Source: Candidatus Brocadiia bacterium (GTDB lineage: Bacteria; Planctomycetota; Brocadiia; SM23-32). Taken from it: a DNA stretch of 21,887 bases. The notes under the pieces were generated by a model. That model saw nothing but the letters and a program-made list of their open reading frames with translations, did not search any database and had not been told where the DNA came from. The stretch spans positions 1 through 21,887 of the forward strand of contig JBKHIT010000069.1 of assembly GCA_046538485.1 (NCBI GenBank), read 5' to 3'. Position 1 is the first letter of the stretch. Each line of letters opens with the position of its first letter. This document shows positions 680-21,887 of this stretch, one piece after another. Position numbers and translations under genes: made by a program.

Positions 680-775
680 GGATTTTGGAGATTCAAAATT
701 GTTTATTCGGTATTTTCTGCAACGTCAAACCAGGCACTTGCCGATAAGATGTTGCGTCCGCAGAGGAGAAACGAT

Positions 776-2710
776 ATGTCGACTGAAACGGATTCCGGTG
801 ATCTGGTTGAAGAAGGAAGTAGCGCCTCAACATTAAACGCTCTCCAAAAAGCGACTGATCCGGTCGCGGAATTTCTTAAAAACAGTCCTTTCCTCTGTAT
901 GAGCTTGTTCGCCCACATCGTTGTTCTCGGAATCCTCGCCTTTTTCACAGCCAAAAAGCCGCCAAATGTCCAGCGAGAAATCAGCCTCTCGCTTGAAGAA
1001 GTCAAGATTGATAAAGTCCAGCACCGGGTCCCGCGAAAAGAAGAAGATTTAACCACGCTTGAAAAAGCGGGCGCGAGCACGAAAGCCGGTGCAGGGGCTT
1101 CGACAGAGAATTACCAAACCGCCAGTGATAGCACTGTAAAAATGGATGTGGCGAACCTGGAAACTATTGGTTTTCAGGCGCCCATTGGAAAAGGCTCTGG
1201 GGGACAGTGGTCCGGACGAGATGGAACGGGCGTGGGGGGACTCGTCACCGGCGACGGAGGCGCGGGCGTGAAAGGCGCTGTTGACCAGTTTGCCGTTATC
1301 ACTATCAACTCCATTCGTCGTGGTGAAACTCTGACTGTTCTGGCAATAGACCGCTCTCCGAGCATTCTCTACGGCGATCTCCCACGCGTCATCGAACGTA
1401 TGAACCACTATTTCAGTGAAATCGACAAGTATCTGCCGAAAAGTATGCGGGCGCGTGGCCGCTGGGTGGTGATGAGCTATGGGGCCAAACCTCAATTCGA
1501 GTGCAAGCCCTCAAGCAACCTCCACTATATCAAAAACGCGCTGAAAAACGTTCAATCAGACCCAACGGGACAGGAGAATCTTGGTAAAGCAATCGAGATG
1601 TTGCTGAACCGTTATGAAAGTAGTTCATTCAAAAATATCCTCATAGCAACGATGACCGACGAAGCCAGCGAGGATCTCCTGAACAAACCGAAAAATCTTG
1701 AGCGTTTGATTCATCGTATGCGCCGGGCAAAGGCACGATTCTTCGTGTTCGGATATGAGAGCACCTTTTGCGCTCAGAAAAAGCGCGTGTCCATCCCCAT
1801 CACAAATATGCGAGGTAAAGATCTGGCTCAATGGAAAGCATATGCTCAGGCCACCGATAAAAAAATCGAAGATATCAAACTCGACGGATGGACTGATGGG
1901 GGTCCGGAATGCCCGGCTCCTGAGCTGTGGTGGACGAAAAGTTGGCATCAATGGCGCCACTGGGGCGGAAGTATCAGTAATATCCCCTCGGGGTTTGGAA
2001 TGTACACTCTGAACCGCCTGGCATTGGCCACAAATGGGATTTATTTCCTGTTGAAAAGCGAATCAAACTACGATCAGAAAAAGCTTTACGGAAAATTCAA
2101 GCCCGACATCTGTTCCGTCCCGCGTTACCAAAACCGCATGAAACAAAGCCATTTGCGCCGCCTTCTCCATGCCATATGGCTGGAATTGAGCAAATATCAT
2201 CTGGATCATCACCTCGACAACCCCAAAGAAGTTGCCAAAGTGATGAAAACGGCACGCCAAGGGCGGGATTATTGTGCGCACCGAATTCGCACGCTACGGG
2301 ACACGCTCAACAATGCCAAACCGGTCGCGAACAACTTTGGGCGATGGGAAGCCCACGCAATGGTGACGCTGGCAGAACTCTATAGAATGCGCTTTATGCT
2401 GGGGCAGTACTATGAAGCGGTATCTGCCAAATGGGATGAAGTTGGCCACACTCTCCAGGGCCGTCAGCGTCTGGTCGTCCGTAAAGGCAAAGCCCCCAGC
2501 GATTTCGTGGGACCCGAGCGGGCAAAACAGGAATTTGAAACGGCACGGGATAATATCCAGTTCGTCACTGAAAAATATAAAGATACACCGTGGGAAATAA
2601 TTTCTAAACGCCTGCGCCGCGGTCTTCACCCATGGCGTTGTTCGGTCGGCAAAAAACCAAAGCATCGCCCTCGCAAACACCGCGCCCATCCGCCCAAAAT
2701 GGGCCTCTAA
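776..2710 (+). CDS. membrane-anchored von Willebrand factor A (VWA) domain protein, 644 aa
   Basis: GAGGAG(763-768) favours ATG776 over 749. N-terminal TM, Gly-rich linker, MIDAS-like LAIDRSPS and later TMTDE, helical C-terminal region, basic Pro-rich tail. Confidence 0.85.
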   Translation: MSTETDSGDLVEEGSSASTLNALQKATDPVAEFLKNSPFLCMSLFAHIVVLGILAFFTAKKPPNVQREISLSLEEVKIDKVQHRVPRKEEDLTTLEKAGASTKAGAGASTENYQTASDSTVKMDVANLETIGFQAPIGKGSGGQWSGRDGTGVGGLVTGDGGAGVKGAVDQFAVITINSIRRGETLTVLAIDRSPSILYGDLPRVIERMNHYFSEIDKYLPKSMRARGRWVVMSYGAKPQFECKPSSNLHYIKNALKNVQSDPTGQENLGKAIEMLLNRYESSSFKNILIATMTDEASEDLLNKPKNLERLIHRMRRAKARFFVFGYESTFCAQKKRVSIPITNMRGKDLAQWKAYAQATDKKIEDIKLDGWTDGGPECPAPELWWTKSWHQWRHWGGSISNIPSGFGMYTLNRLALATNGIYFLLKSESNYDQKKLYGKFKPDICSVPRYQNRMKQSHLRRLLHAIWLELSKYHLDHHLDNPKEVAKVMKTARQGRDYCAHRIRTLRDTLNNAKPVANNFGRWEAHAMVTLAELYRMRFMLGQYYEAVSAKWDEVGHTLQGRQRLVVRKGKAPSDFVGPERAKQEFETARDNIQFVTEKYKDTPWEIISKRLRRGLHPWRCSVGKKPKHRPRKHRAHPPKMGL

Positions 2711-7008: not shown

Positions 7009-8333
7009 TCTGCACCTGAGACCGGTGAAAATCGACCGCGAAGTTCATCCGACGCATATACAAGCTGCCCACCGACAAACGTTCCGACCGCTTTACCGCA
7101 CAGTTGCCAACCTTCGAAAGGCGTATTTCGGGACCGCGAAACAAATTCCTCCGGATTCACCGTCCATTCCTGTTCGGGATCGATCAAAGTCAGGTCCGCA
7201 GCCTGGCCGGGAGAGATGGTTCCACCAGGAAGCCCGAATACACGGGCCGGGCCACTGCTCAGGAGCCGCGCGGCATCCATCGGAGAAAGTTTTCCCCCGT
7301 GGATAAATTTCGTCAGGATGACACCAAGAGTCGTTTCCACACCGATAAGCCCGCAAGCGCCCTGTTTCTTATCCTCTTCGGTATGCGGAGCATGATCACA
7401 TGCAATAGCAGCTACTTCGCTTTCCCCAAGCGCCTCCTGGAGACAAGATCGATCCTGAGAACTTCTCAATGGTGGATTAACTTTCGGAACTTCTTGATTT
7501 CTATAGTCTTCCTGCGCGAGAACCAGGTGATGCGGGGTCAACTCGTAACTCACCCGGGCGGATTTTGAAGCCGCGCGGAATTCTGTGATCGTTTCAATGG
7601 TTCTCGCCAAACTGATGTGTGAAAAATGAATCGGGCATTTCCATTTTGCTGCAATTTGCTGGTCGCGACGAACGTAATTGGTTTCGTTCGCGTATGGTTC
7701 AACAGGTTCGAATCCCGGATCGACCCCATCTTCATAATCACGCAACGCACGCTCGGAATCTTCTGGGTGCGGACTCAGAACCAGCCCCGTTTTAGCAGCC
7801 CGGCGTGCGACTTCATTCATAACATCCGGTCTGGTAACAGGATCCCCATCATCGCTGAGTGCAACCACTGAACTTTCCCGGGCCAATGCCGGAATATCCG
7901 TTACAGATAATCCCTGCCTGCCTTGTGTCATAGCCGCCTTGAAATACAGTCTGACCGGACAGTCTCTTTCTGCTTTGACGGACAATTCACGGATCAAACC
8001 AGGCGAATCGAGCGCCGGAACCGTATTGGGTTCACAGACAACGCAGCAGTACCCGCCACGGGCCGCCGCATGCGCTCCTGACTCAAGCGTTTCTTTTTCT
8101 GTGAAACCTGGTTCGCGAAAATGCGCGTGAATCTCAACAAGCCCCGGGAACAACCAAAGACCTTCCCCATCGATTGTGATAGTGTTACTGTCAGCATCGC
8201 CCCCTTCCGTAATGCTCTGGATTTGCCCCTTTTGCACCAGAGCATCCGTTGTCCGATCGATATCCTGAGTGGGATCAACTAAACGCACCCGTCGGATAAG
8301 CCAGTTCTGGACTCCAGAGGCGGTTTCCTTCAC
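7005..8333 (-). CDS. pyrC: dihydroorotase (type I)
   Basis: HAHFREPG, EPNT, SDDG, HPED, HFSHIS, TPHHL, KVNPPLRS, DHAPH, SRNTPF. GTG8333 overlaps the upstream kinase stop (ATGTGA) and follows AAGGGG. Confidence 0.9.
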   Translation of the reverse strand: MKETASGVQNWLIRRVRLVDPTQDIDRTTDALVQKGQIQSITEGGDADSNTITIDGEGLWLFPGLVEIHAHFREPGFTEKETLESGAHAAARGGYCCVVCEPNTVPALDSPGLIRELSVKAERDCPVRLYFKAAMTQGRQGLSVTDIPALARESSVVALSDDGDPVTRPDVMNEVARRAAKTGLVLSPHPEDSERALRDYEDGVDPGFEPVEPYANETNYVRRDQQIAAKWKCPIHFSHISLARTIETITEFRAASKSARVSYELTPHHLVLAQEDYRNQEVPKVNPPLRSSQDRSCLQEALGESEVAAIACDHAPHTEEDKKQGACGLIGVETTLGVILTKFIHGGKLSPMDAARLLSSGPARVFGLPGGTISPGQAADLTLIDPEQEWTVNPEEFVSRSRNTPFEGWQLCGKAVGTFVGGQLVYASDELRGRFSPVSGAE

Positions 8334-9856
8334 ATCGTCCCCTTGGAGATTCCGATTGCCTTTTGCCACTTTTTCAACGCCGGGTATATTTCCTCGTAGC
8401 GTTCGAGCATCTTATTATAAAATGCCGCATTAACGGGATCCGGCGTGAACGTTTCTTTTTCGATAACAACCTCTTCGATAGCCTCATCGAACGACCCGTA
8501 GATACCAGCTCCAACGCCGGCACAAATGGCCATCCCCAGCGAGGCAGCTTCGTCGACCTCCATACGGACGACGGGTCGGTTATAAATATCGGCTTTTAAC
8601 TGGAGCCAAAAATCGCTCTTGGCTCCGCCACCGATAGCGCGAAATGCCTCCACTTCTACTCCTGCTTCCTCCAGAACCTTCAAATTTAGCTTCATCTCGT
8701 AAGAAATACCTTCCAGAACTGACCGGAAGAGTTCAGCGCGTGTCGTGCTGAGATCAATTCCTACGATAGCCCCCACCGGGTCTGGATCCATGTAGGGGGT
8801 CCCCGCCATTGTAAAATGGGGTTGAACGAAAATGTCAGTAGGATTCTCGCTCATCTCTTCGACGATCACATCGTAGACATCCACCCCGCGGGAAATCGCA
8901 TCCTCGTGTTCGGTATGTGCGAGCTTATCTCGGACCCATTTCAAGAGAGCCCCTCCTGTGAAATTGTAGGCCAGAGAAATATACATATCGGGATAGGCAT
9001 GAGGATAGCAAGCAAGGTTGTTATTCAACATCGTCTGGTTAACCACAGGTTCTTCCATAGCAACGGCAAAACATTCTACAGTGCCTGTAGCATCCATTGC
9101 GATTCCGGGTTCGATAACTCCACTTCCCAACGCGCCTGCAGGTTGATCGTGACTGCCGACGCAGACAACGCATCTTTCCGCAACTCCGAGTTCACCGGCT
9201 ATTTTGCCCCGGAGCATTCCAACGACCTCCCCGCTCGCTGCTGCTTCGCCAAAAAGATTAGAGTTGATATCTGCGGAACTGCAGATTTTTTCGCTATAGC
9301 GCTTTTCGTAAATATCAAAGGCCATAGTTCGCGCGGCCATCGAGTATGATATGCGCGGATTCAGTCCCATTTTCCACTGAGCGTATTCCCCGAACGTCAG
9401 GTACTTTTCCATTCTGCTGAACAGTTCTGGCTGTTTCTCCTGAATCCACATTAATTTTGCCAGGGTAAACATCTGGCTCGGAGGCTGTCCGGTGATTTTC
9501 ATGATTTCGGCGGGGTCAGCATTTTTCAGCCAGTACTGGAAAATATCAGCCGCCCGGTTATCAAAACCGATAATGCTGTTATCCAACGTCATGCCCCGAA
9601 TATCCACCGGAACAGCCGCTTCCCCCAGAACACTTATCGCGAGGGCTTTTACGGGATCATCTGCCGCTTTGTCCGTTGCTTCTTTCACCGCCTCCTTGAC
9701 ATTCTCCCAAACTTCGTCGGGATCCAGTTCAATCCAGCCGGGTTGTGGATGCTCAAGCGAATATTCCCGATACGCTGTTGCCATTAACCTACCGTACTCG
9801 TTGAAGACGTTGGCTTTGGTTCCCGTCGTGCCGATATCCAATCCCATAAGACTCAC
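8330..9856 (-). CDS. FGGY-family carbohydrate kinase (xylulokinase-like), 508 aa
   Basis: GLDIGTTGTK, GSHDQ, ATGT, LEGISYE, IGGGAKSDFWLQLKAD. GGAGG 8 nt before GTG9856; the ORF-track extension to 10222 is spurious. Confidence 0.9.
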   Translation of the reverse strand: MSLMGLDIGTTGTKANVFNEYGRLMATAYREYSLEHPQPGWIELDPDEVWENVKEAVKEATDKAADDPVKALAISVLGEAAVPVDIRGMTLDNSIIGFDNRAADIFQYWLKNADPAEIMKITGQPPSQMFTLAKLMWIQEKQPELFSRMEKYLTFGEYAQWKMGLNPRISYSMAARTMAFDIYEKRYSEKICSSADINSNLFGEAAASGEVVGMLRGKIAGELGVAERCVVCVGSHDQPAGALGSGVIEPGIAMDATGTVECFAVAMEEPVVNQTMLNNNLACYPHAYPDMYISLAYNFTGGALLKWVRDKLAHTEHEDAISRGVDVYDVIVEEMSENPTDIFVQPHFTMAGTPYMDPDPVGAIVGIDLSTTRAELFRSVLEGISYEMKLNLKVLEEAGVEVEAFRAIGGGAKSDFWLQLKADIYNRPVVRMEVDEAASLGMAICAGVGAGIYGSFDEAIEEVVIEKETFTPDPVNAAFYNKMLERYEEIYPALKKWQKAIGISKGTM

Positions 9857-9911
9857 GACGACGTCCTCCATGCTTGAGAAAAGCCTCCTCCGCGGAACAC
9901 ACACTACTTTG

Positions 9912-9940
9912 AGATTAGCACGGGCCCCCCGGCTTTTCAA
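9912..9940 (-). promoter_or_regulatory. sigma70 promoter with extended -10 for the kinase-pyrC operon
   Basis: Minus strand TTGAAA(9940-9935)-N17-TAATCT(9917-9912), with TGc immediately before the -10. Confidence 0.55.
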
Positions 9941-9990
9941 GTCGCCTGCTCCCGGTGTGGTCAAACTCAATTTGCTGGCCACCTGGATAT

Positions 9991-10019
9991 TTGCAAAATC
10001 CCGCCCTCTTACGTATAGT
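9991..10019 (+). promoter_or_regulatory. sigma70 promoter for ribH-nusB cluster (divergent from the kinase promoter)
   Basis: TTGCAA(9991-9996)-N17-TATAGT(10014-10019). Confidence 0.6.
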
Positions 10020-10136
10020 ATTAAAGCTTTGCCGCCGGTAACGCTGGAGTGGAACTGTCCTTGATTAGACCACGAAAGTATAAAAGAAAGGTCTTTTGCG
10101 CGTTCCCAACCCAATTTGAGACAGAGGAAAGTAAAA

Positions 10137-10622
10137 ATGCCAGATATAGAGACTACACAGGGCCATCTGAATGCCGAAGGGAAACGATTTGCGATTGTAG
10201 CATCGAGATACAACGAGATCATCTCGAGCCGCCTGATCAGCGGGGCGCAAGATTGCCTTTTGCGTCACGGCGCTCAGGCCGTTGATCTCCACCTTTACCG
10301 GGTTCCAGGGTCCTTCGAAATTCCCCTTGTTGCCCGCAAAATCGCTGACGGCGGGGATTTTGACGCTGTTATCTGCCTGGGCACGATCGTTCGTGGCGAG
10401 ACACCACATTTCGATTTCGTCGCTTCCGAAGCGGCCCGAGGGGTCGGACGGGCCGGGTCCGAATCGGGCGTCCCCGTCATATTTGGTATCGTAACAACCG
10501 ATACAATGGATCAGGCCGTTGACCGGGCCGGCGGCCGAACGGGCAATCGGGGTGCCGAAGCGGCGCTGACTGCAATCGAAATGGCCAATCTTGTGGATAC
10601 GATCGAAACATCCGACGAATGA
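10137..10622 (+). CDS. ribH: 6,7-dimethyl-8-ribityllumazine synthase
   Basis: VPGSFEIP, CLGTIVRGETPHFDFV, PVIFGIVT; GAGGA before ATG10137. Confidence 0.96.
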   Translation: MPDIETTQGHLNAEGKRFAIVASRYNEIISSRLISGAQDCLLRHGAQAVDLHLYRVPGSFEIPLVARKIADGGDFDAVICLGTIVRGETPHFDFVASEAARGVGRAGSESGVPVIFGIVTTDTMDQAVDRAGGRTGNRGAEAALTAIEMANLVDTIETSDE

Positions 10623-10742
10623 GATCGGTGCTTGAATGGCACAAACAACCTGTGCACAGTACTCGGTTAAGCCTCGATCCAATGTTTCAAAAGAGTATTT
10701 CGCCCGAACGGCAAATCGTCAAATTATAGTTAGAGAAACACC

Positions 10743-12080
10743 GTGAATAAGAAAAGTGACGCCAGAGAGTTCGCTCTAACTCGTTTGTACCAGAGGGATA
10801 TCCTGGGCCAGGAAGAATTGGATAAGATCAACGAAGTCGAGAGATCGTCCAAAGCTCCGCCCAGTACTCCCTATGGCCGGGATCTAGCGGGCGGTTGCAT
10901 CAGTGAACAGGAAGAGCTCGATATTATTATCCAGGAAACAGCTGAAAATTGGCGTCTCGATCGCATGCCAGCCATCGATCGGAACATCCTCCGTGTGGCA
11001 ACATACGAACTTCTGCGCAAACCAGAAACTCCCCCCAGAGTTGTTATCAACGAAGCCATTGAAATGGCTAAAAAATACAGCACAGAAAACTCAGCCATGT
11101 TCGTTAACGGCGTGTTGGACAAAATATTCACAGATTATGTCCAGGAACAGGAGGAGCAAAACGGCGCATCCGACTCCATAGCGCTTTCCACATGTGAGAA
11201 TATGGAACCGGACCCTATGCAAAAAGCCGATCTTCACCTCCACACAAAAGCATCAGATGGTACCTGTGAACCTTCCCGAGTTGTTGAACTTGCCGTTCAA
11301 GCTGGTCTCAAAGCCATCGCGGTAACCGACCACGATACGGTAAACGGTGTCGAAACTGCTGCTAAAGCGGGCCAAGAGGCCGGCATCCATGTCATTCCGG
11401 CCCTGGAATTGACCGCATACGGGGAAATTGGCGCTGACAAACAATTTCATGAACTCCATATTCTCGGCTATTTCCTGGATCCCACAGATTCAGAATTGCT
11501 GGATGAGCTTCAACGGCTCAGAGAGATTCGCATACAAAGAATTCGTCAGATGGGAGAAGTGCTCCGGAATATGGGACTGCCGGTTGAGCTCGAAAACATT
11601 TTGGAAAATGAAAGCGGTGAAGCACTGGGACGAATGCATGTCGCCCGGGAAATGGTCAAACAAGGAGTCTGCCAAAACATAAAAGAAGCCTTCGATGATT
11701 ACATTGGCACCGGCAAACCTGGATACGTACCAAAAGAACACCTGACACCACCCGAAGTTATCAAAATCATCCACCAGGCCGGGGGATGTGCGGTTCTCGC
11801 GCACCCCGGTTTTGATGAACATATCCCCGGAATGCTCACAGACCTTATCGATGCTGGGCTTGACGGGTTAGAAGTCCATTACCCCGGTTATTCCGCCGAT
11901 CAGGTAGCGTTCTGGCTCGATCAGGCGCGTGAAAATAATCTCCTTGTGACCGGAGGAAGTGATTTTCACGGAAAGGCAAAAGCTGGCGTTGAAATCGGCC
12001 AGGAATCGGTCTCAATGGTGGAAGTCTGTAAATTGCGTGATCGTTCTCACCTCGGCAACAAAGCCATAAGCCCAACCTGA
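10743..12080 (+). CDS. nusB: transcription antitermination factor NusB fused to a PHP-family phosphoesterase (YciV/TrpH-like)
   Basis: aa 1-130 NusB (AREFAL, NWRLDRMPAIDRNILR, VVINEAIEMAKKY, FVNGVLD); aa ~161-435 PHP (DLHLHT..SDG, AVTDHDT, ELHILGY, GRMHVA, LAHP, TGGSDFHG); one uninterrupted frame. Confidence 0.92.
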   Translation: MNKKSDAREFALTRLYQRDILGQEELDKINEVERSSKAPPSTPYGRDLAGGCISEQEELDIIIQETAENWRLDRMPAIDRNILRVATYELLRKPETPPRVVINEAIEMAKKYSTENSAMFVNGVLDKIFTDYVQEQEEQNGASDSIALSTCENMEPDPMQKADLHLHTKASDGTCEPSRVVELAVQAGLKAIAVTDHDTVNGVETAAKAGQEAGIHVIPALELTAYGEIGADKQFHELHILGYFLDPTDSELLDELQRLREIRIQRIRQMGEVLRNMGLPVELENILENESGEALGRMHVAREMVKQGVCQNIKEAFDDYIGTGKPGYVPKEHLTPPEVIKIIHQAGGCAVLAHPGFDEHIPGMLTDLIDAGLDGLEVHYPGYSADQVAFWLDQARENNLLVTGGSDFHGKAKAGVEIGQESVSMVEVCKLRDRSHLGNKAISPT

Positions 12081-12148
12081 TTCTGGATCCAGTGGCCATC
12101 TGAAACTTTTCCTTCAATTATTTTGAATAGCCAGGAGCCAACTCGATC

Positions 12149-13132
12149 GTGAAATCGTTCGGAAAGGATAATAAAGAATCGCCTGAAATCGAGGAACAAA
12201 AGGAGTCAACTCAGGATGCCAAAAAGGGGTTCTTCGGTAAACTGAAATCAGGGTTGAAAAAAACTCACTGCAAAATCGCAAGTGGCCTCCGCAGTGTTAT
12301 TCCTATTGGCGGCAAACTCGACGAACAGCTACTCGATGATATCGAAGAACAATTGCTCGTGGGTGATGTCGGGCCCAGGGCAGCAATCCGCCTTTGTGAC
12401 CGCCTCCGGGAAGCCCACCAAAAAGGGGAACTCGAAGACACAGACGCGGTCCTGCCTTTCCTCAAAAACACAATCAAAGAGGACCTCCATCAGTGGGATT
12501 CCGCCTTGCACCTGCCGGAAGGGGAAACCGGTATAATCCTGGTGTCCGGTGTGAATGGATCCGGCAAAACCACAAGCATCGGCAAATTGGCACACCGCTT
12601 CCGCAACCAGGGGAAGAGTGTTCTGCTCGCCGCCAGTGATACTTTTCGCGCCGCAGCCGTCGAACAACTCTCCATATGGGCAGAGTGGACCGATTCGGAT
12701 ATCGTAAAAAACGAATGCGCCGACCCCGCAGCCGTGGCGTTTGATGCCACCGATAAAGCGCTCTCAAACGATTACGATGTGCTCATTGTGGATACGGCCG
12801 GGCGAGTCCACACACGCAAAAATCTCATGACAGAACTGCAAAAAATCCAGCGCGTCATAGGCAAAAAGGTCACCGGAGCCCCTCACGAAACCCTCATGGT
12901 TCTGGATGCAAACACCGGTCAAAATGGCATAAGTCAGGCGCTAAGATTCAATGAAGCACTCGAGCTGACGGGTATTATCCTCGCCAAACTCGACGGCACA
13001 GCAAAAGGGGGTATCGTTATTGGTATGCAGGATGAAATTAACCTGCCCGTAAAGTTCGTCGGTGTCGGCCAACAAGCAGAAGATCTCGCTCCGTTCGACC
13101 CCGACACCTTCATCGATGCGCTCTTCGAATGA
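12149..13132 (+). CDS. ftsY: signal recognition particle receptor FtsY
   Basis: GVNGSGKTT, DTFRAAAVEQL, DTAGR, KLDGTAKGG. Confidence 0.96.
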   Translation: MKSFGKDNKESPEIEEQKESTQDAKKGFFGKLKSGLKKTHCKIASGLRSVIPIGGKLDEQLLDDIEEQLLVGDVGPRAAIRLCDRLREAHQKGELEDTDAVLPFLKNTIKEDLHQWDSALHLPEGETGIILVSGVNGSGKTTSIGKLAHRFRNQGKSVLLAASDTFRAAAVEQLSIWAEWTDSDIVKNECADPAAVAFDATDKALSNDYDVLIVDTAGRVHTRKNLMTELQKIQRVIGKKVTGAPHETLMVLDANTGQNGISQALRFNEALELTGIILAKLDGTAKGGIVIGMQDEINLPVKFVGVGQQAEDLAPFDPDTFIDALFE

Positions 13133-13165
13133 CTCTCCAAACCTTAGCCACAAGCAAATATAATA

Positions 13166-14371
13166 ATGGATAAGCTAACTTTTCAACAGATCAAAAAGAC
13201 GTTCGACCACTACGTAATTCCAAACTACTCCCGAAACGACGTCGCGTATGTCCGGGCAGAAGGTTCGTATATTTGGGATAGCGAAGGTAACCGCCATGTC
13301 GACCTGATGCCCGGCTGGGGCACAACAACTGTCGGTTATTGTCACCCCCGAATCGTCAGCTCTATACAGAGACAGGCCGCGCGACTTATTCATGTCGATA
13401 ATACCTTTTACAACATCCCCCAGGGACTATTGGCTGAAAGAATCAGCGAGCATTCCTTCGGCGGACAATGTTTTTTCTGCAACAGCGGAACAGAAGCCGT
13501 AGAAGGTGCTATGAAACTTGCCAGGCTATGGGGCGAGGAAAAAGGCCGATACAAAATCATCACCATGCGTGACTCTTTTCACGGCAGGACGTTTGGCTCC
13601 ATAACTGCCACTGGTCAGGACAAGTATCACAAAGGTTATCTGCCGCTGCTGCCAGGCTTTATACATGTCCCCTTCAACGATTTCGATGCGCTCAGTAATG
13701 CTGTCGACGAGGAAACCTGCGCCGTACTGATGGAACCAGTTCAGGGCGAAGGTGGCATCAACATAGCCGACACGGACTATTTAGAAAACGTTCGCGATCT
13801 TTGCGACAGCGAAAATATACTTCTCATATTCGACGAAGTACAAACCGGTATCGGGCGAACGGGAAAATGGTTTGGGTATCAAAACTTTAACCTCGAACCC
13901 GATATCATTACCCTGGCTAAAGCCCTGGGAGGCGGTTTTCCTATCGGCGCTTTTGCTGCAAAACCGGAAATTGCAGATCATCTCGTTCCCGGCACACACG
14001 CCTCAACGTTCGGCGGGAATCCCCTCGGCTGCGCCGCTGCAATCGCCGTCTTCGATTTGATCGAAGAAGAAAACCTTCTGGAGCAGGGTCTCAAAACGTC
14101 TGCCTACGTTCTCGGGCGATTGGAACAAATTGCCCGGGAATGTCCAATAGTCGAAGAGGTAAGAGGGATCGGCTTGATGATTGGTGTCGAGCTGGATCGG
14201 CCGGGCAAAGCTATATTTGAATATTGCCTGGACCGGTTCGTGAGAATAAATTGCACCCACGATACGGTTCTCAGAATGTTGCCCGCTCTGAACATCGGGC
14301 GTGCCGAGCTTGATGAAGGTCTACAGGTGCTTGAAGAAGCGATCCGGAAAGCCGACAAACAAAACATTTGA
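13166..14371 (+). CDS. argD: acetylornithine aminotransferase (class III PLP)
   Basis: FFCNSGTEAVE, SFHGRT, EPVQGEGG, DEVQTGIGRTG, LAKALGGG, HASTFGGNP; adjacent to argF. Confidence 0.92.
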   Translation: MDKLTFQQIKKTFDHYVIPNYSRNDVAYVRAEGSYIWDSEGNRHVDLMPGWGTTTVGYCHPRIVSSIQRQAARLIHVDNTFYNIPQGLLAERISEHSFGGQCFFCNSGTEAVEGAMKLARLWGEEKGRYKIITMRDSFHGRTFGSITATGQDKYHKGYLPLLPGFIHVPFNDFDALSNAVDEETCAVLMEPVQGEGGINIADTDYLENVRDLCDSENILLIFDEVQTGIGRTGKWFGYQNFNLEPDIITLAKALGGGFPIGAFAAKPEIADHLVPGTHASTFGGNPLGCAAAIAVFDLIEEENLLEQGLKTSAYVLGRLEQIARECPIVEEVRGIGLMIGVELDRPGKAIFEYCLDRFVRINCTHDTVLRMLPALNIGRAELDEGLQVLEEAIRKADKQNI

Positions 14372-15479: not shown

Positions 15480-15704
<225 letters not shown>

Positions 15705-18096: not shown

Positions 18097-18918
18097 TCAC
18101 TCCTCGGTGGAAGAAGCCGATTGCTGCATGGCCCACTGAAGTTTATTAATCTCACCGGAGGGCACAGCCCGGACTGTACCGTCCCTGAACAAGACCATAA
18201 TCCCCTCCGGGTGCCGCGCCTTCTTCACAGTGTTCTCAGCTCCACCCGCGCCGTTCCATCCGAGGTCCGACTCATAGATAAGCACGGTCTGCGACGGGAT
18301 ATCGGCGGTTTTTATCCCGTCGATTCTGGCGTTAAAAGCATATCCGCATCGCTTTTCGGGGGCTGAGGGACAACAAAAGATAGGCATTTTGCTTCTATTC
18401 TGATCGGCATCCATGTGTTTTAAAAGCGAATCAACCCATGTATCAGCGGGAGGATAGTTGTCTTCCCAATCCATTGAATACATCGTCATGCCGATATAAA
18501 GCTGCCGCAAATGACCTTCGCATACCAGCTGCTCGGCCCGGGCGTTCATCGCCGATATGAAGAGGCTCACGACACAAAAGAGAACAAGAGACGTCCCGGC
18601 CCCAATCACTGAAACCACGGTCCCGCCTATTGCCAAACCCTGACCATCTTCAACTTTCCCCCAGCGCAATTTGCGCAAACCGACCAGTCCCAGAACGACA
18701 CCGAGGCTCGATGCAAGGAAGCCAACGCCTGTCAGTGCTACGGCAAATGTACTCTGAAAAGCGATACCAAGCGCTGCCCCCAGGACGGCCAGAACAAGCC
18801 CAAAAACCCCCAGGAAAACCGAATATTGGGGAAGCTCGGTATTCCCGGAGCGAACGTTTTCATTGCCCTTCCCACTATCGGGGGAGGATTTCAAGGGTAT
18901 GCCTTCTGGCTTTCCCAT
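18097..18918 (-). CDS. DUF4190-like membrane domain + prepilin-processing-associated H-X9-DG domain protein, 273 aa
   Basis: LGLVGLRKL...GQGLAIGG TM hairpin; C..HLRQL..G..MY..D..D.YPP; F.CPS; H-PEGIMVLFR-DG. GAGGA before ATG18918. Confidence 0.82.
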   Translation of the reverse strand: MGKPEGIPLKSSPDSGKGNENVRSGNTELPQYSVFLGVFGLVLAVLGAALGIAFQSTFAVALTGVGFLASSLGVVLGLVGLRKLRWGKVEDGQGLAIGGTVVSVIGAGTSLVLFCVVSLFISAMNARAEQLVCEGHLRQLYIGMTMYSMDWEDNYPPADTWVDSLLKHMDADQNRSKMPIFCCPSAPEKRCGYAFNARIDGIKTADIPSQTVLIYESDLGWNGAGGAENTVKKARHPEGIMVLFRDGTVRAVPSGEINKLQWAMQQSASSTEE

Positions 18919-18986
18919 CGTATCGGTTCCTCTACCATACGATCCACCACACCATCTCGAGTGCGTCCTTTTTTCTGCACTTCTGT

Positions 18987-19014
18987 AGTTTATAGCACAA
19001 ATATCCGGTGTCAA
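18987..19014 (-). promoter_or_regulatory. sigma70-type promoter for the H-X9-DG gene
   Basis: Minus strand TTGACA(19014-19009)-N16-TAAACT(18992-18987). Confidence 0.5.
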
Positions 19015-19076: not shown

Positions 19077-21836
19077 TTACTGGCGCGAACGTTTTTTTGC
19101 TTCTTCGAAAACGCTTTGGCCGGAGTCTTTTTCCTGATCGCTTTCTTCAACCTGTTTATCTTTCTTCTCTTCCCCGGTTGCTTTCTCTGGGGGCTCATGT
19201 TCCCGTTTTTTGCGGGCACGACGGCGGGCCATGCGTCGTTTTGCCATTTGCCACCATCCGCCGACCTTCAAACGCAACCGTCCGGGCACACGCCAGATTC
19301 TCTCTGGAATTAAATGGCGCCAAAGAGCTTTCCTCGTCGTTATTTCACACAACATAACAACAAGCAGGACAATCGACAGAATCGGTACCAGACTCCGAAT
19401 TTTTCCAAAAGATTTACGACCAGCTATTTTGCCAGAAAAAAGGTCGTCGACGTGCATAATTCGGCCACCATCGGTCTCTTCCGCAAGATTCTTCAGTGTC
19501 TTTGCGCCGGTTTTTGCACGAACTCTCTCGAATTCAGGCGAGTACGGCAAGACAACAGGGGGCAAACTCACTCGCTGTCCACCTCCAGTCCGAATAATCC
19601 CGTGGTAAACCCCCGTACTGGTCAATTTGAACCGAACTTCCCTTTTGCGCGGAGACACCCACTGGAGCGGAAGTTCAGCCGGTCTACTTTCGTCCGGGCC
19701 AATTATCATTGCCGTTGCGCCGGGGCATTTACGGGCGACATCGGAATCCATTTCAAGAGTGACCGTCGCCGTACGTCCTTCTCGCAAGATGCTTCCAAAA
19801 AAACGAATATCCTGGCGCTCACGCTTAAGCCACTTAGCAACAGAGGAAAGAAAGGGTTTGTAATCTTTCCACAGAGCCAGTTCTCCGCTGTAAGGGCCAT
19901 CGGCCTCCGCCGTAAAAGCCGCTACACGTCCCAATCCCCGCCGCCATATAGCCAGCACAGGGGCATTATTCTCATCAATGGTCCGTACGACAGTGGCAGC
20001 TTCCTGCTTGTCGTAACAAAGATTGTAACCATTGATAGACGGAAAATCTTTGATACCTGTCTGTCCAAACATGACCCGCGATGGTGTCATTCTTGCATCG
20101 GTTTTCTGTTCAATAAACGTCCGCCGCGCCACTCGCATAGCATCCTGGCAGAAGACTCGTGGCAGCGAATGGGAATCGGTGGTAAAAAAAACACGGCCGC
20201 CTCCAATTTTGGCGAGATCAGTAAGAAACCCCGAGTCGCGATCTCCCTTAGTGCCAAGCCCGATGACTGACAGGGTATTCCCCCCCTGCTGCCACTTTTT
20301 TATCAGCGGCCGGCATCCCTGTGGCTCCTCGCTGTCCGCCGCATCGGCAAAAAGCACGATATGCCGGTTGGGCGCCTTACTTTTCGTGAGTTCTCTCACG
20401 GCCGCCGCGAGCCCGGTATGGACAAAAATCCCGCCGCCCATCGATTCGATACTCAGGATCTTCCGCTCGATCCTCTCCCGATTGCCCTTCATCAATGTCA
20501 GTCCCACGACCTTATGGGCCTGGCTGTCAACGGCGTGGACAGAGACCTGATCCTGCGGGGCGAGCAGCCGGACGGCCTCCGCAGCTCCACGGTTGGCAAG
20601 ATCCATTTTTTGCAGCCCTCCTTTGACGGACATACCCATGGAACCGGACCGATCCAGAACAATGCCCATTGCCAGAGGTGGGCGGCGGTAATGTTCTTTT
20701 TTCTCCATGGATACAGGAAGAATTTTTTCGAGACGACTTCTGTAATAACCGCCGGCCGCAAAACTGTTTTCACCGCCTGTAATCAGCAACCCTCCGCCCA
20801 TTTCCCTTACGTAATTGCGCAACGCCGCATCCGCTTTGTCGTTGAAAGCACTCAACGAAACGTTTTCCAGCACCACAATCGAAAACGGCTTAAGGCCAGC
20901 CGAAGTTATCGCAGTCCCTTCGCCGCATATCCGAAGCCCCATTCCAGCTGTTTGGAGGGCCCGCGATAAATTGTCAGGCGCACCGCTGGTATTCACCAGA
21001 AGAATAGCCGGGGGGCCGACGGCTTCGGTCACAGCAAGAGCGTGGTTATTCTCGGGAATCGTGTCGCCAGAGACGCTCAAATCGATTGCGTATTGAGCGA
21101 GACCGGCGTGCGGAACAACATCGCGGTAAGAAAAGTTATTCTTGCCTTCCGAGAGTTCTACGTCATTATTTATTTCCCCTTGTGGCGTCGTAATTCTAAG
21201 TTTGGCCGTGGATGCACTGGGTGAAAAAACCGAGAATTCAATTTCGAACGGATGTCCCACCATAATCCTTTCTGGCAACCTGACGGCGGTAACGGCTGCA
21301 TCCATTTCTCTTTCCTTTGTAATCGGCCAGTAATCGACCACAACCCCCTGCTTATGAAGATCGCCCACAAGTTCCGAGGGTTCGGGACCCGTAAATAACC
21401 CGTCGGATATGACGAAAACACGTCCTCCTCTATCGCCGCAGAGAGCCGAGGCAAGCCGCAGACCAGCATGCAGATCGCTTGAATCGTCCAACGAGGAAGC
21501 CGCCAGTTCTACGGCCGATACTACATTCGCCCCATCACCGAACGAAACGACGGATATGGTATCGTTGTCACGCTTTCTGGCCCGACAGGCCTTCACCATC
21601 TCACGTCCCGTCTGGAGAGCTTCGTCCCCTGCAGAAAGCGAACGATCCACAAGGAATATCAGTCGCCGTCCCTCCGCACCAGATTTCAGGCCCGGTCCGG
21701 CCAGAAGCAAAACGCATAAAACGATCATTGCAATGCGCAGAGGCCAGGCACTGCGCGGGCCTCGACCTAACCGCCACCACAGGTACGCCAAGGGAGCGAC
21801 CAGCAGCAACGCCAGAGGTTTCTCAATCACAAACAT
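19077..21836 (-). CDS. large membrane protein with two VWA domains and a GATase1-like region (type found in MoxR/DUF58/BatA operons), 919 aa
   Basis: N-terminal TM pair; LVDRSLS...ISDG; Ig-like segment ending PENN; YVREMGGGLLITGGENSFAAGGY; VLDRSGSM; GLGRVAAFT; C-terminal TM and charged tail. ATG21836 overlaps an upstream stop (TGATG). Confidence 0.88.
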   Translation of the reverse strand: MFVIEKPLALLLVAPLAYLWWRLGRGPRSAWPLRIAMIVLCVLLLAGPGLKSGAEGRRLIFLVDRSLSAGDEALQTGREMVKACRARKRDNDTISVVSFGDGANVVSAVELAASSLDDSSDLHAGLRLASALCGDRGGRVFVISDGLFTGPEPSELVGDLHKQGVVVDYWPITKEREMDAAVTAVRLPERIMVGHPFEIEFSVFSPSASTAKLRITTPQGEINNDVELSEGKNNFSYRDVVPHAGLAQYAIDLSVSGDTIPENNHALAVTEAVGPPAILLVNTSGAPDNLSRALQTAGMGLRICGEGTAITSAGLKPFSIVVLENVSLSAFNDKADAALRNYVREMGGGLLITGGENSFAAGGYYRSRLEKILPVSMEKKEHYRRPPLAMGIVLDRSGSMGMSVKGGLQKMDLANRGAAEAVRLLAPQDQVSVHAVDSQAHKVVGLTLMKGNRERIERKILSIESMGGGIFVHTGLAAAVRELTKSKAPNRHIVLFADAADSEEPQGCRPLIKKWQQGGNTLSVIGLGTKGDRDSGFLTDLAKIGGGRVFFTTDSHSLPRVFCQDAMRVARRTFIEQKTDARMTPSRVMFGQTGIKDFPSINGYNLCYDKQEAATVVRTIDENNAPVLAIWRRGLGRVAAFTAEADGPYSGELALWKDYKPFLSSVAKWLKRERQDIRFFGSILREGRTATVTLEMDSDVARKCPGATAMIIGPDESRPAELPLQWVSPRKREVRFKLTSTGVYHGIIRTGGGQRVSLPPVVLPYSPEFERVRAKTGAKTLKNLAEETDGGRIMHVDDLFSGKIAGRKSFGKIRSLVPILSIVLLVVMLCEITTRKALWRHLIPERIWRVPGRLRLKVGGWWQMAKRRMARRRARKKREHEPPEKATGEEKKDKQVEESDQEKDSGQSVFEEAKKRSRQ

Positions 21837-21887
21837 CACGCTCGTTTCTCCAGCAAAAACCAACAACTAATCAGCAAAACGATAATC
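21836..21887 (-). CDS. 3' end of upstream membrane protein (…IIVLLISCWFLLEKRA*), translationally coupled to the VWA gene
   Basis: Open hydrophobic frame from the window edge ending in TGA 21838-21836, overlapping the next ATG. Confidence 0.6.
   Translation of the reverse strand, partial: IIVLLISCWFLLEKRA

Follow-up and report, generated by a model that had tools for sequence, protein, structure and literature searches.

A conserved fusion of NusB with a PHP phosphoesterase in Brocadiia that may bring an RNase AM-like activity to rRNA antitermination

Why would a bacterium keep its transcription antitermination factor NusB in one polypeptide with a complete phosphoesterase, and could such a union bring an RNA- or nucleotide-cleaving activity to ribosomal RNA (rRNA) genes while they are transcribed? 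The question is raised by a gene at 10743..12080 (forward strand) of a 21,887-nucleotide stretch of DNA, hereafter the window, which is contig JBKHIT010000069.1 of a Candidatus Brocadiia bacterium (Planctomycetota; assembly GCA_046538485.1). The gene starts with GTG and runs in one frame for 445 codons plus a stop; a public protein 98% identical to its product (P0002) has the same start. According to our analysis, the best explanation is that it encodes a single bifunctional protein, whose NusB module is the ordinary NusB of this organism.

The N-terminal NusB domain (amino acids, aa, 1-130; 10743..11132) is recognised by Pfam (PF01029, aa 6-128, E 3e-33, 115.5 bits against a cut-off of 23.1), by the NCBIfam nusB model TIGR01951 (aa 4-130, 129.9 bits against a cut-off of 88.35) and by Foldseek. 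An acidic, Ser-rich, flexible linker follows (aa 131-159; 11133..11219), of low predicted local distance difference test score (pLDDT) in the structural model, and its C-terminal end is a PDP motif common to the clade of the window protein. The PHP phosphoesterase domain, helical insertion subdomain included (aa 160-426; 11220..12020), was delimited by our own profile scan and by the NCBIfam models NF041577 and NF047791, and Pfam detects its N-terminal part (PF02811, aa 163-226, E 6e-12). The C-terminal tail (aa 427-445; 12021..12077) is modelled as a helix (425-441) with a disordered end (pLDDT <50 at 441-445). This 445-aa product with a C-terminal PHP part is not a stand-alone NusB of ~140 aa. 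An initial annotation, made by a model from the DNA letters alone, had proposed just such a single frame, with a full NusB, an acidic and Ser-containing linker of about 30 residues and a complete PHP domain; frame, Pfam, NCBIfam and structural model bear it out, and all PHP motifs named in it are present (H165-x-H167, D196-H197-D198, A353-H354-P355, G405-S-D-F-H-G410 and G296-R-x-H299).

A search for the domain architecture in public proteins, one of the checks proposed together with that annotation, found both Pfam domains in 117 of the 120 best database matches; these 117 are 378-484 aa long and 39-98% identical to the window protein. The named ones are labelled 'transcription antitermination factor NusB' and come from Planctomycetota, Candidatus Brocadiia, Brocadia, Scalindua and relatives. 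With our own profiles both domains are complete in 107 of 121 proteins (the best 120 matches and the window protein), and in these 107 the linker measures 11-53 aa (median 27) and is rich in E, A, P, G, D and S. Another proposed check concerned a stop, a frameshift or an assembly error around the linker, at 11130-11225. Logan contigs over 10650-12150 from one run, the probable source of the assembly, are identical to the window, and a run from a second study provided one contig spanning the same interval with 34 substitutions and no indels, which lead to 12 amino-acid changes and no stop. Judged by this contig, the fused gene is intact and under purifying selection in a sister strain.

We surveyed 132 genomes of the window's class, which includes the anammox bacteria, and read some of the loci individually. 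In six families of the class the fusion is uninterrupted by a stop in 110 of 121 genomes, which answers the same check on a larger scale: 26 of 30 in the window's own family (f1), 43 of 47 in f2, 13 of 14 in f3, 26 of 28 in f107, and the only genome of each of f105 and f108 (1/1). The remaining eleven are G504, with an in-frame TAG; G503 and G251, with fragments at contig edges; and eight genomes of 58-95% completeness without a match at E ≤ 1e-30. In G504 (family f1, locus L127) the TAG occupies locus positions 949-951 inside the conserved junction motif PDPExRADLHVHS, and no start codon stands between it and DLHVHS; a nonsense mutation, a sequencing error or read-through could each account for it, and it looks to us like a mutation or sequencing error in a fused gene. 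One TGA was flagged by the survey in G499, where both domains, on reading of the locus, lie in one stop-free frame. Five families of the class are unfused (f106 and f109-f112; 10 genomes) and have nusB immediately upstream of the PHP gene in nine of the ten, mostly in another frame; in G402, of an unfused family, no nusB was found within 1.5 kb of the PHP gene.

Outside the class, full-length uninterrupted matches occur, among 401 sampled genomes of the phylum, only in family f102 (G355 and G368); they were confirmed at the loci (L028 and L027, respectively), and there the linker is short and the N-terminus of NusB diverges. In families f41 and f59 the nusB and PHP genes lie side by side, parted by one stop. 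At the two f41 loci (L023 of G171 and L024 of G188) nusB terminates with GGAGAA-TAG and a TTG two codons on, in frame and behind GGAGA, appears to be the start of the PHP gene, so the pair looks tightly coupled and one stop codon away from fusion; locus L026 (G221, f59) resembles them, with a TGA and then a TTG. Among seven further families sampled, nusB is directly upstream in f46, f61 and f67, and was not found within 1.5 kb in f16, f36, f49 and f71. We also scanned all prokaryotes, one genome per species, with the alignment of fused proteins as a query, a scan biased by its two search patterns. Its best 80 loci include three fusions (one Planctomycetota metagenome-assembled genome and two Scalindua) and 14 loci at which nusB and PHP genes adjoin without being fused; of these, seven are labelled Omnitrophota, one Hydrogenedentota, one Gemmatales and five 'uncultured Planctomycetia/Planctomycetales'.

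How such a gene came about was approached with a phylogeny of the PHP part, also suggested by the initial annotation. In a quick maximum-likelihood tree of 118 PHP domains, unrooted and weak in its deep branches, the window protein belongs to a clade of 21 fused sequences (Shimodaira-Hasegawa-like approximate likelihood ratio test, SH-aLRT, 99), and the 13 fusions of the anammox type make up another (SH-aLRT 100). Both clades join the adjacent f41 genes in a weakly supported group (81), and the adjacent genes of Omnitrophota are nearby (group support 84). The f102 fusions group apart, close to sequences of Acidobacteriota and Actinomycetota; a minimum of two changes is therefore needed to explain the label 'fused' over the tree, and the fusion in f102 is probably independent of that in the window's clade. 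The simplest reading would be that the fusion derives from an older gene order, ribH-nusB-PHP, and that on at least two occasions the stop that parted nusB from PHP disappeared; with such a tree we do not claim the order of events as established. In the window, ribH (lumazine synthase; 10116-10622, forward; PF00885 E 2e-52, TIGR00114 above cut-off) is the upstream neighbour and ftsY (12149-13132, forward; TIGR00064 324.6 bits against a cut-off of 260.7) the downstream one, on the same strand and as first annotated; genes for an acetylornithine-type aminotransferase and then an ornithine carbamoyltransferase come after ftsY. Promoter and terminator scans of 9700-13300 gave 6 candidates against 3.4 expected and 6 against 5.0 expected, respectively, not above shuffled sequences.

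An AlphaFold2 model of the window protein, built on 30 fused homologues, has a mean pLDDT of 88.7 and two well-folded domains. The NusB part is mostly above 88 in aa 1-136, loop 21-40 excepted; confidence is low at about residues 137-155 of the linker region (below 50 at 137-144), and a predicted template modelling score of 0.67 leaves the relative orientation of the two domains undefined. A complex prediction of NusB (aa 1-136) against PHP (aa 156-445) returned a score of 0.00, that is, no answer, and weighs neither way. By Foldseek the NusB part has the all-helical NusB fold, with template modelling (TM) scores of 0.81-0.84 to 1eyv, 1tzt, 3d3b and 3r2c, and its matches include chains from NusB-S10 and NusB-NusE-boxA complexes. 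The PHP part gives TM 0.79-0.86 to 3e0f, 9etk and 2yb1, and 7ug9 is matched as well; all four match it by sequence too. Among them, 9etk is RNase AM of V. cholerae, 7ug9 the PHP domain of E. coli RNase AM, and 2yb1 is Cv1693 with Mn, AMP and phosphate.

Does the NusB part still serve as a NusB? Its Tyr16 aligns with Tyr18 of E. coli NusB (chain 3imq_A), a conserved residue of the S10 interface, and is invariant in the 107 fused proteins. The window genome, which is 88% complete, has a single PF01029 match, the fused gene itself. Five complete single-contig genomes of the class contain the fused gene and, in four of them, one more NusB-family match within a frame of 467-500 aa, which we take to be an RsmB-type paralogue; a NusB-family search found no stand-alone NusB of ~140 aa in any of the five. 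As the fused gene is the only NusB there apart from the RsmB-like one, the fused protein must supply the role of NusB in these bacteria. The initial annotation noticed an Arg-poor N-terminus and feared an altered RNA binding. The former is true of the window protein (MNKKSDARE, where its relatives mostly have MRKRTxARE), but the latter concern is weak and specific to this one protein: Lys replaces Arg, and R8 is invariant in the 107 proteins. A boxA-like 13-mer is found 115-146 nucleotides upstream of the 16S start in five of five leaders (the window genome and four complete genomes of the class), once per leader, in a search that covered 1.3-kb leaders with at most 3 mismatches and for which about 0.16 matches per leader are expected by chance according to our own arithmetic. 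The core is of the TTCTTTGACAA type in the window genome (G000 contig 139, L111) and of the CTCTTTTAAAA type in the anammox genomes (L112-L115). With these features, we infer that the NusB module of the window protein would bind S10 (NusE) and boxA RNA.

The PHP part belongs, by sequence and fold, to the RNase AM / Cv1693 type and its active site is complete, although we file it under neither family. In E. coli RNase AM, according to PMC9410882, the metals are held by H13, E72, D255, H83, H198, D20, H45 and H257, and R201 is in contact with a sulfate at the scissile position. The first nucleotide has its 5' phosphate buried in an R107/R110/R141 pocket while F161 stacks on the base. Identity of the window protein to this enzyme is 33% over 251 aa, and counterparts of all nine metal ligands are present (H13/H15/D20/H45/E72/H83/H198/D255/H257 correspond to H165/H167/D172/H197/E222/H239/H354/D407/H409), as are the 5'-phosphate pocket and the stacking Phe (R263/R266/R297 and F317). 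The counterparts were taken from a pairwise alignment to E. coli RNase AM, the 2yb1 alignment and the family alignment; E222 was equated with E72 from the IPxxE motif and the 2yb1 alignment, as BLAST placed the gap differently. Ligands, pocket and stacking Phe are invariant in the 107 fused proteins. The PHP part also matches 2yb1 (phmmer E 8e-36; Foldseek E 1e-19, TM 0.79), with R99/R102/R134/H136 aligned to R263/R266/R297/H299.

What would such a site cleave? The conserved arginine pocket and active site imply a substrate whose 5' phosphate is anchored and whose 3' phosphoester is cut, and both nucleoside 3',5'-bisphosphates (pNp, among them pAp) and 5'-phosphorylated RNA fit this description. 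Sequence alone does not separate a pAp phosphatase from an oligoribonuclease here, as both NCBIfam models match and no discriminating residues are known; 30 of 30 aligned fused proteins match NF041577 and NF047791 with similar strength (best NF047791 E 2.6e-55). The window genome has CysQ (TIGR01331, 263.2 against a cut-off of 228.8), so that the pAp-removal role is already covered, though redundancy is possible; a second TrpH-type PHP gene was not found in this 88% complete genome. RNase AM matures the 5' ends of 5S, 16S and 23S rRNA, as stated in PMC7261194, and acts as an oligo- and diribonuclease (PMC11528712). The presence of CysQ and the published rRNA roles of RNase AM make us lean towards an RNA substrate.

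On balance we slightly favour the suggestion that the NusB part serves as an anchor, by which a 5'-phosphate-dependent oligoribonuclease or bisphosphate phosphatase is kept at the rRNA antitermination complex. NusB with S10 would bind boxA of the nascent pre-rRNA and join the antitermination complex of RNA polymerase, and its flexible linker would carry along a three-metal PHP phosphoesterase of the RNase AM / Cv1693 kind. This enzyme would grip a 5'-phosphorylated nucleotide in the arginine pocket and cut the phosphoester on its 3' side, acting either as a 5'-to-3' oligoribonuclease or as a nucleoside 3',5'-bisphosphate phosphatase. Tied to NusB by 11-53 residues, the PHP site would stay close to both the 5' leader and the RNA exit region while the whole operon is transcribed, and there it may trim new 5'-monophosphate ends or clear 5'-phosphorylated leader and spacer fragments left by endonuclease cuts. 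In E. coli, according to a preprint, NusB stays with RNA polymerase in a stable complex which promotes co-transcriptional cleavage by RNase III (bioRxiv 10.64898/2026.03.17.712431). The tethering idea gains indirect support from the nusB-PHP pair occurring in three phyla, at least two fusions, the sole NusB, the boxA-like elements and the separate CysQ. Of the reading given in the initial annotation, the architecture has proved real, ancient, intact and conserved, with a PHP part of the RNase AM/Cv1693 type and a complete active site; tethering, its timing and a coupling to transcription are what we infer from it. We may even suggest, much more tentatively, that NusB-PHP is a built-in processing subunit which rides with RNA polymerase on boxA and S10 and, as soon as endonucleases produce new 5'-monophosphate ends or leader and spacer fragments, trims the former or destroys the latter.

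Several observations weigh against an anchored, RNA-processing NusB-PHP. The full-length matches to the two family models (aa 159-421) stay below their cut-offs, with 194.6 bits against 400 for NF041577 (3',5'-nucleoside bisphosphate phosphatase) and 167.8 against 375 for NF047791 (RNase RNM), and the counterpart of RNase AM Arg201 is F357, the residue after AHPG, in a column that varies in the family alignment; because of the failed equivalog cut-offs and the missing arginine we call the PHP part neither RNase AM nor Cv1693. E. coli RNase AM is a long branch (1.6) of unsure position in the tree, so its distance makes the transfer of function weak. In the boxA-like matches 3 mismatches are tolerated, and the leaders are not all independent, as four of the five come from a single family. 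Many genomes of the f1 family (for example G480-G499) have a second, free TrpH-type PHP paralogue, 32-39% identical to the fused one, and neighbouring genes can fuse without any mechanistic coupling. The last point leads to an explanation that we hold possible yet rather doubtful, namely that operon neighbours were joined to fix their co-expression and stoichiometry, and that the PHP part does the housekeeping of its free-standing counterpart, as a general pAp/pNp phosphatase or as a nanoRNase/diribonuclease that completes RNA decay. The closest relatives of the PHP part are free-standing in 63 of the best 80 loci of the all-prokaryote scan, in Chloroflexota, Bacillota, Actinomycetota, Acidobacteriota and others, with no nusB within up to 3 kb, and therefore the enzyme does not need NusB. 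The variable, low-complexity linker, which looks disordered, would suit this explanation, as would the slightly higher score of the window protein on NF041577 than on NF047791 (all 30 aligned members matching both) and the diribonuclease activity reported for P. aeruginosa RNase AM. It is less easily reconciled with the linkage of nusB and PHP across three phyla and with at least two fusions, which are more than one chance event, with a fusion kept without reverting in 110 of 121 genomes of six families, or with the CysQ that the window genome already has.

The position of ribH directly upstream might also make the PHP part the missing phosphatase of the riboflavin pathway, acting on 5-amino-6-ribitylamino-uracil 5'-phosphate, with NusB as a bystander. 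We find this quite improbable: adjacency of ribH and nusB is widespread among bacteria, the PHP gene directly adjoins nusB at the loci examined, and the arginine pocket for a 5' phosphate with the base-stacking Phe fits a two-phosphate nucleotide, not a single-phosphate substrate. An Rfam scan of the whole window gave only the tRNA gene at 15480-15553 (forward strand), with no flavin mononucleotide (FMN) riboswitch or other element near the fused gene, and the window holds no rib gene besides ribH. A mainly structural part in the antitermination complex, with catalysis irrelevant, has a parallel in SuhB, a phosphatase-fold (inositol monophosphatase) protein described as stabilising the E. coli complex, and the single PF00459 match of the window genome is CysQ, no SuhB being found there. 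With that genome merely 88% complete, and with metal ligands and substrate-pocket residues invariant in 107 proteins, which indicates selection for catalysis, such a role is hard to believe. An assembly error or a one-off read-through of two genes, for which one could quote the in-frame TAG in the linker of G504 from the same family, is hardly conceivable in view of the second-study contig without indel or stop, the 110 of 121 fused genomes and the 117 of 120 two-domain database matches. In connection with SuhB we also considered its replacement by the fusion and rejected it: the five complete fusion-bearing genomes of the class have 1-3 genes of the inositol-phosphatase family, four of them with one at 221-223 bits.

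Elsewhere in the window, an FGGY carbohydrate-kinase frame (8330-10222, reverse strand) starts about 115 codons ahead of its Pfam domain, which begins at aa 126, and runs into the start region of ribH; the gene probably starts further downstream. A small protein with a YacP-like NYN domain (PF05991; 6505-7008, reverse), a predicted RNase fold, is encoded about 3.7 kb upstream of the fused gene on the other strand. Two large von Willebrand A-domain proteins occupy 749-2710 (forward) and 19077-21866 (reverse), and the product of 18097-19014 (reverse) matches DUF1559 weakly, with a score under the Pfam cut-off; the DUF1559 family is typical of Planctomycetota.

Current work on how transcription and processing of rRNA are coordinated in bacteria still concerns the E. 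coli complex, to judge from the same preprint (bioRxiv 10.64898/2026.03.17.712431). A conserved fusion of a boxA factor with an RNase AM-type enzyme suggests the testable idea that a 5'-end-trimming activity is physically recruited to a transcribing rRNA operon, and it points to a possible partner of NusB in the phyla where the nusB and PHP genes merely adjoin. If NusB-PHP does ride with RNA polymerase, maturation of rRNA 5' ends would be obligatorily co-transcriptional in these bacteria, and in Omnitrophota, Hydrogenedentota and other Planctomycetota the Nus complex would have an unrecognised partner in the free PHP protein encoded beside nusB. There is also a gap in annotation: 'NusB' is the only name given to hundreds of public proteins that have a second, catalytic domain as well. 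Carriers include anammox bacteria, which matter for the nitrogen cycle and for wastewater treatment. The initial annotation did not know of this architecture being described, and our literature searches, with most subscription journals and supplements outside their scope, found no paper that describes a NusB-PHP fusion; rare, however, it is not, being common in public databases under the name of NusB.

Compared with NusB of E. coli, Aquifex and Thermotoga (PDB 3d3b, 3r2c and 1tzt), the window protein is alike in its family score, helical fold, Tyr16, upstream ribH and boxA-like elements in the leaders. It differs in the added C-terminal catalytic domain of about 290 aa, where known NusB proteins end at about 140 aa, and in an N-terminal basic stretch of KK instead of RKR. 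RsmB, the 16S rRNA m5C967 methyltransferase, has a NusB-like N-terminal domain and is a precedent for joining a NusB-type RNA-binding module to an enzyme that acts on rRNA, and the NusB part of the window protein matches RsmB models weakly; the domain of RsmB, however, is a paralogue that exists beside a separate NusB in the genome, whereas the fused copy of the window is the only NusB and its partner enzyme is a different one.

With RNase AM (Rnm/YciV/TrpH; 7ug9 and 9etk) the PHP part shares the barrel and insertion subdomain, the nine ligands, the 5'-phosphate pocket and the counterpart of F161, with a Foldseek E of 2e-21 to 9etk. It departs from it in scoring below the NF047791 cut-off, in having no counterpart of Arg201, in standing on a branch distant from the E. 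coli enzyme and in being fused to NusB; rnm of E. coli adjoins yciO instead. We note in this connection that in E. coli K-12 (1323220-1327727, locus L110, RefSeq) rnm is followed by yciO, annotated as a putative RNA-binding protein, and that rluB, for a 23S rRNA pseudouridine synthase, comes two genes on. Cv1693 of Chromobacterium violaceum (2yb1) is among the best sequence and profile matches and its pocket residues align, but the window PHP is below the NF041577 cut-off, is fused to NusB and comes from a genome with a separate CysQ for pAp. Fusions of RNase AM with RNase III in some delta-proteobacteria, mentioned in PMC7261194, are a precedent for RNase AM being joined to an enzyme that acts on rRNA. 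The parts of the window protein are, then, known families; what the analysis adds is a census of their conserved fusion among genomes and a second, probably independent fusion.

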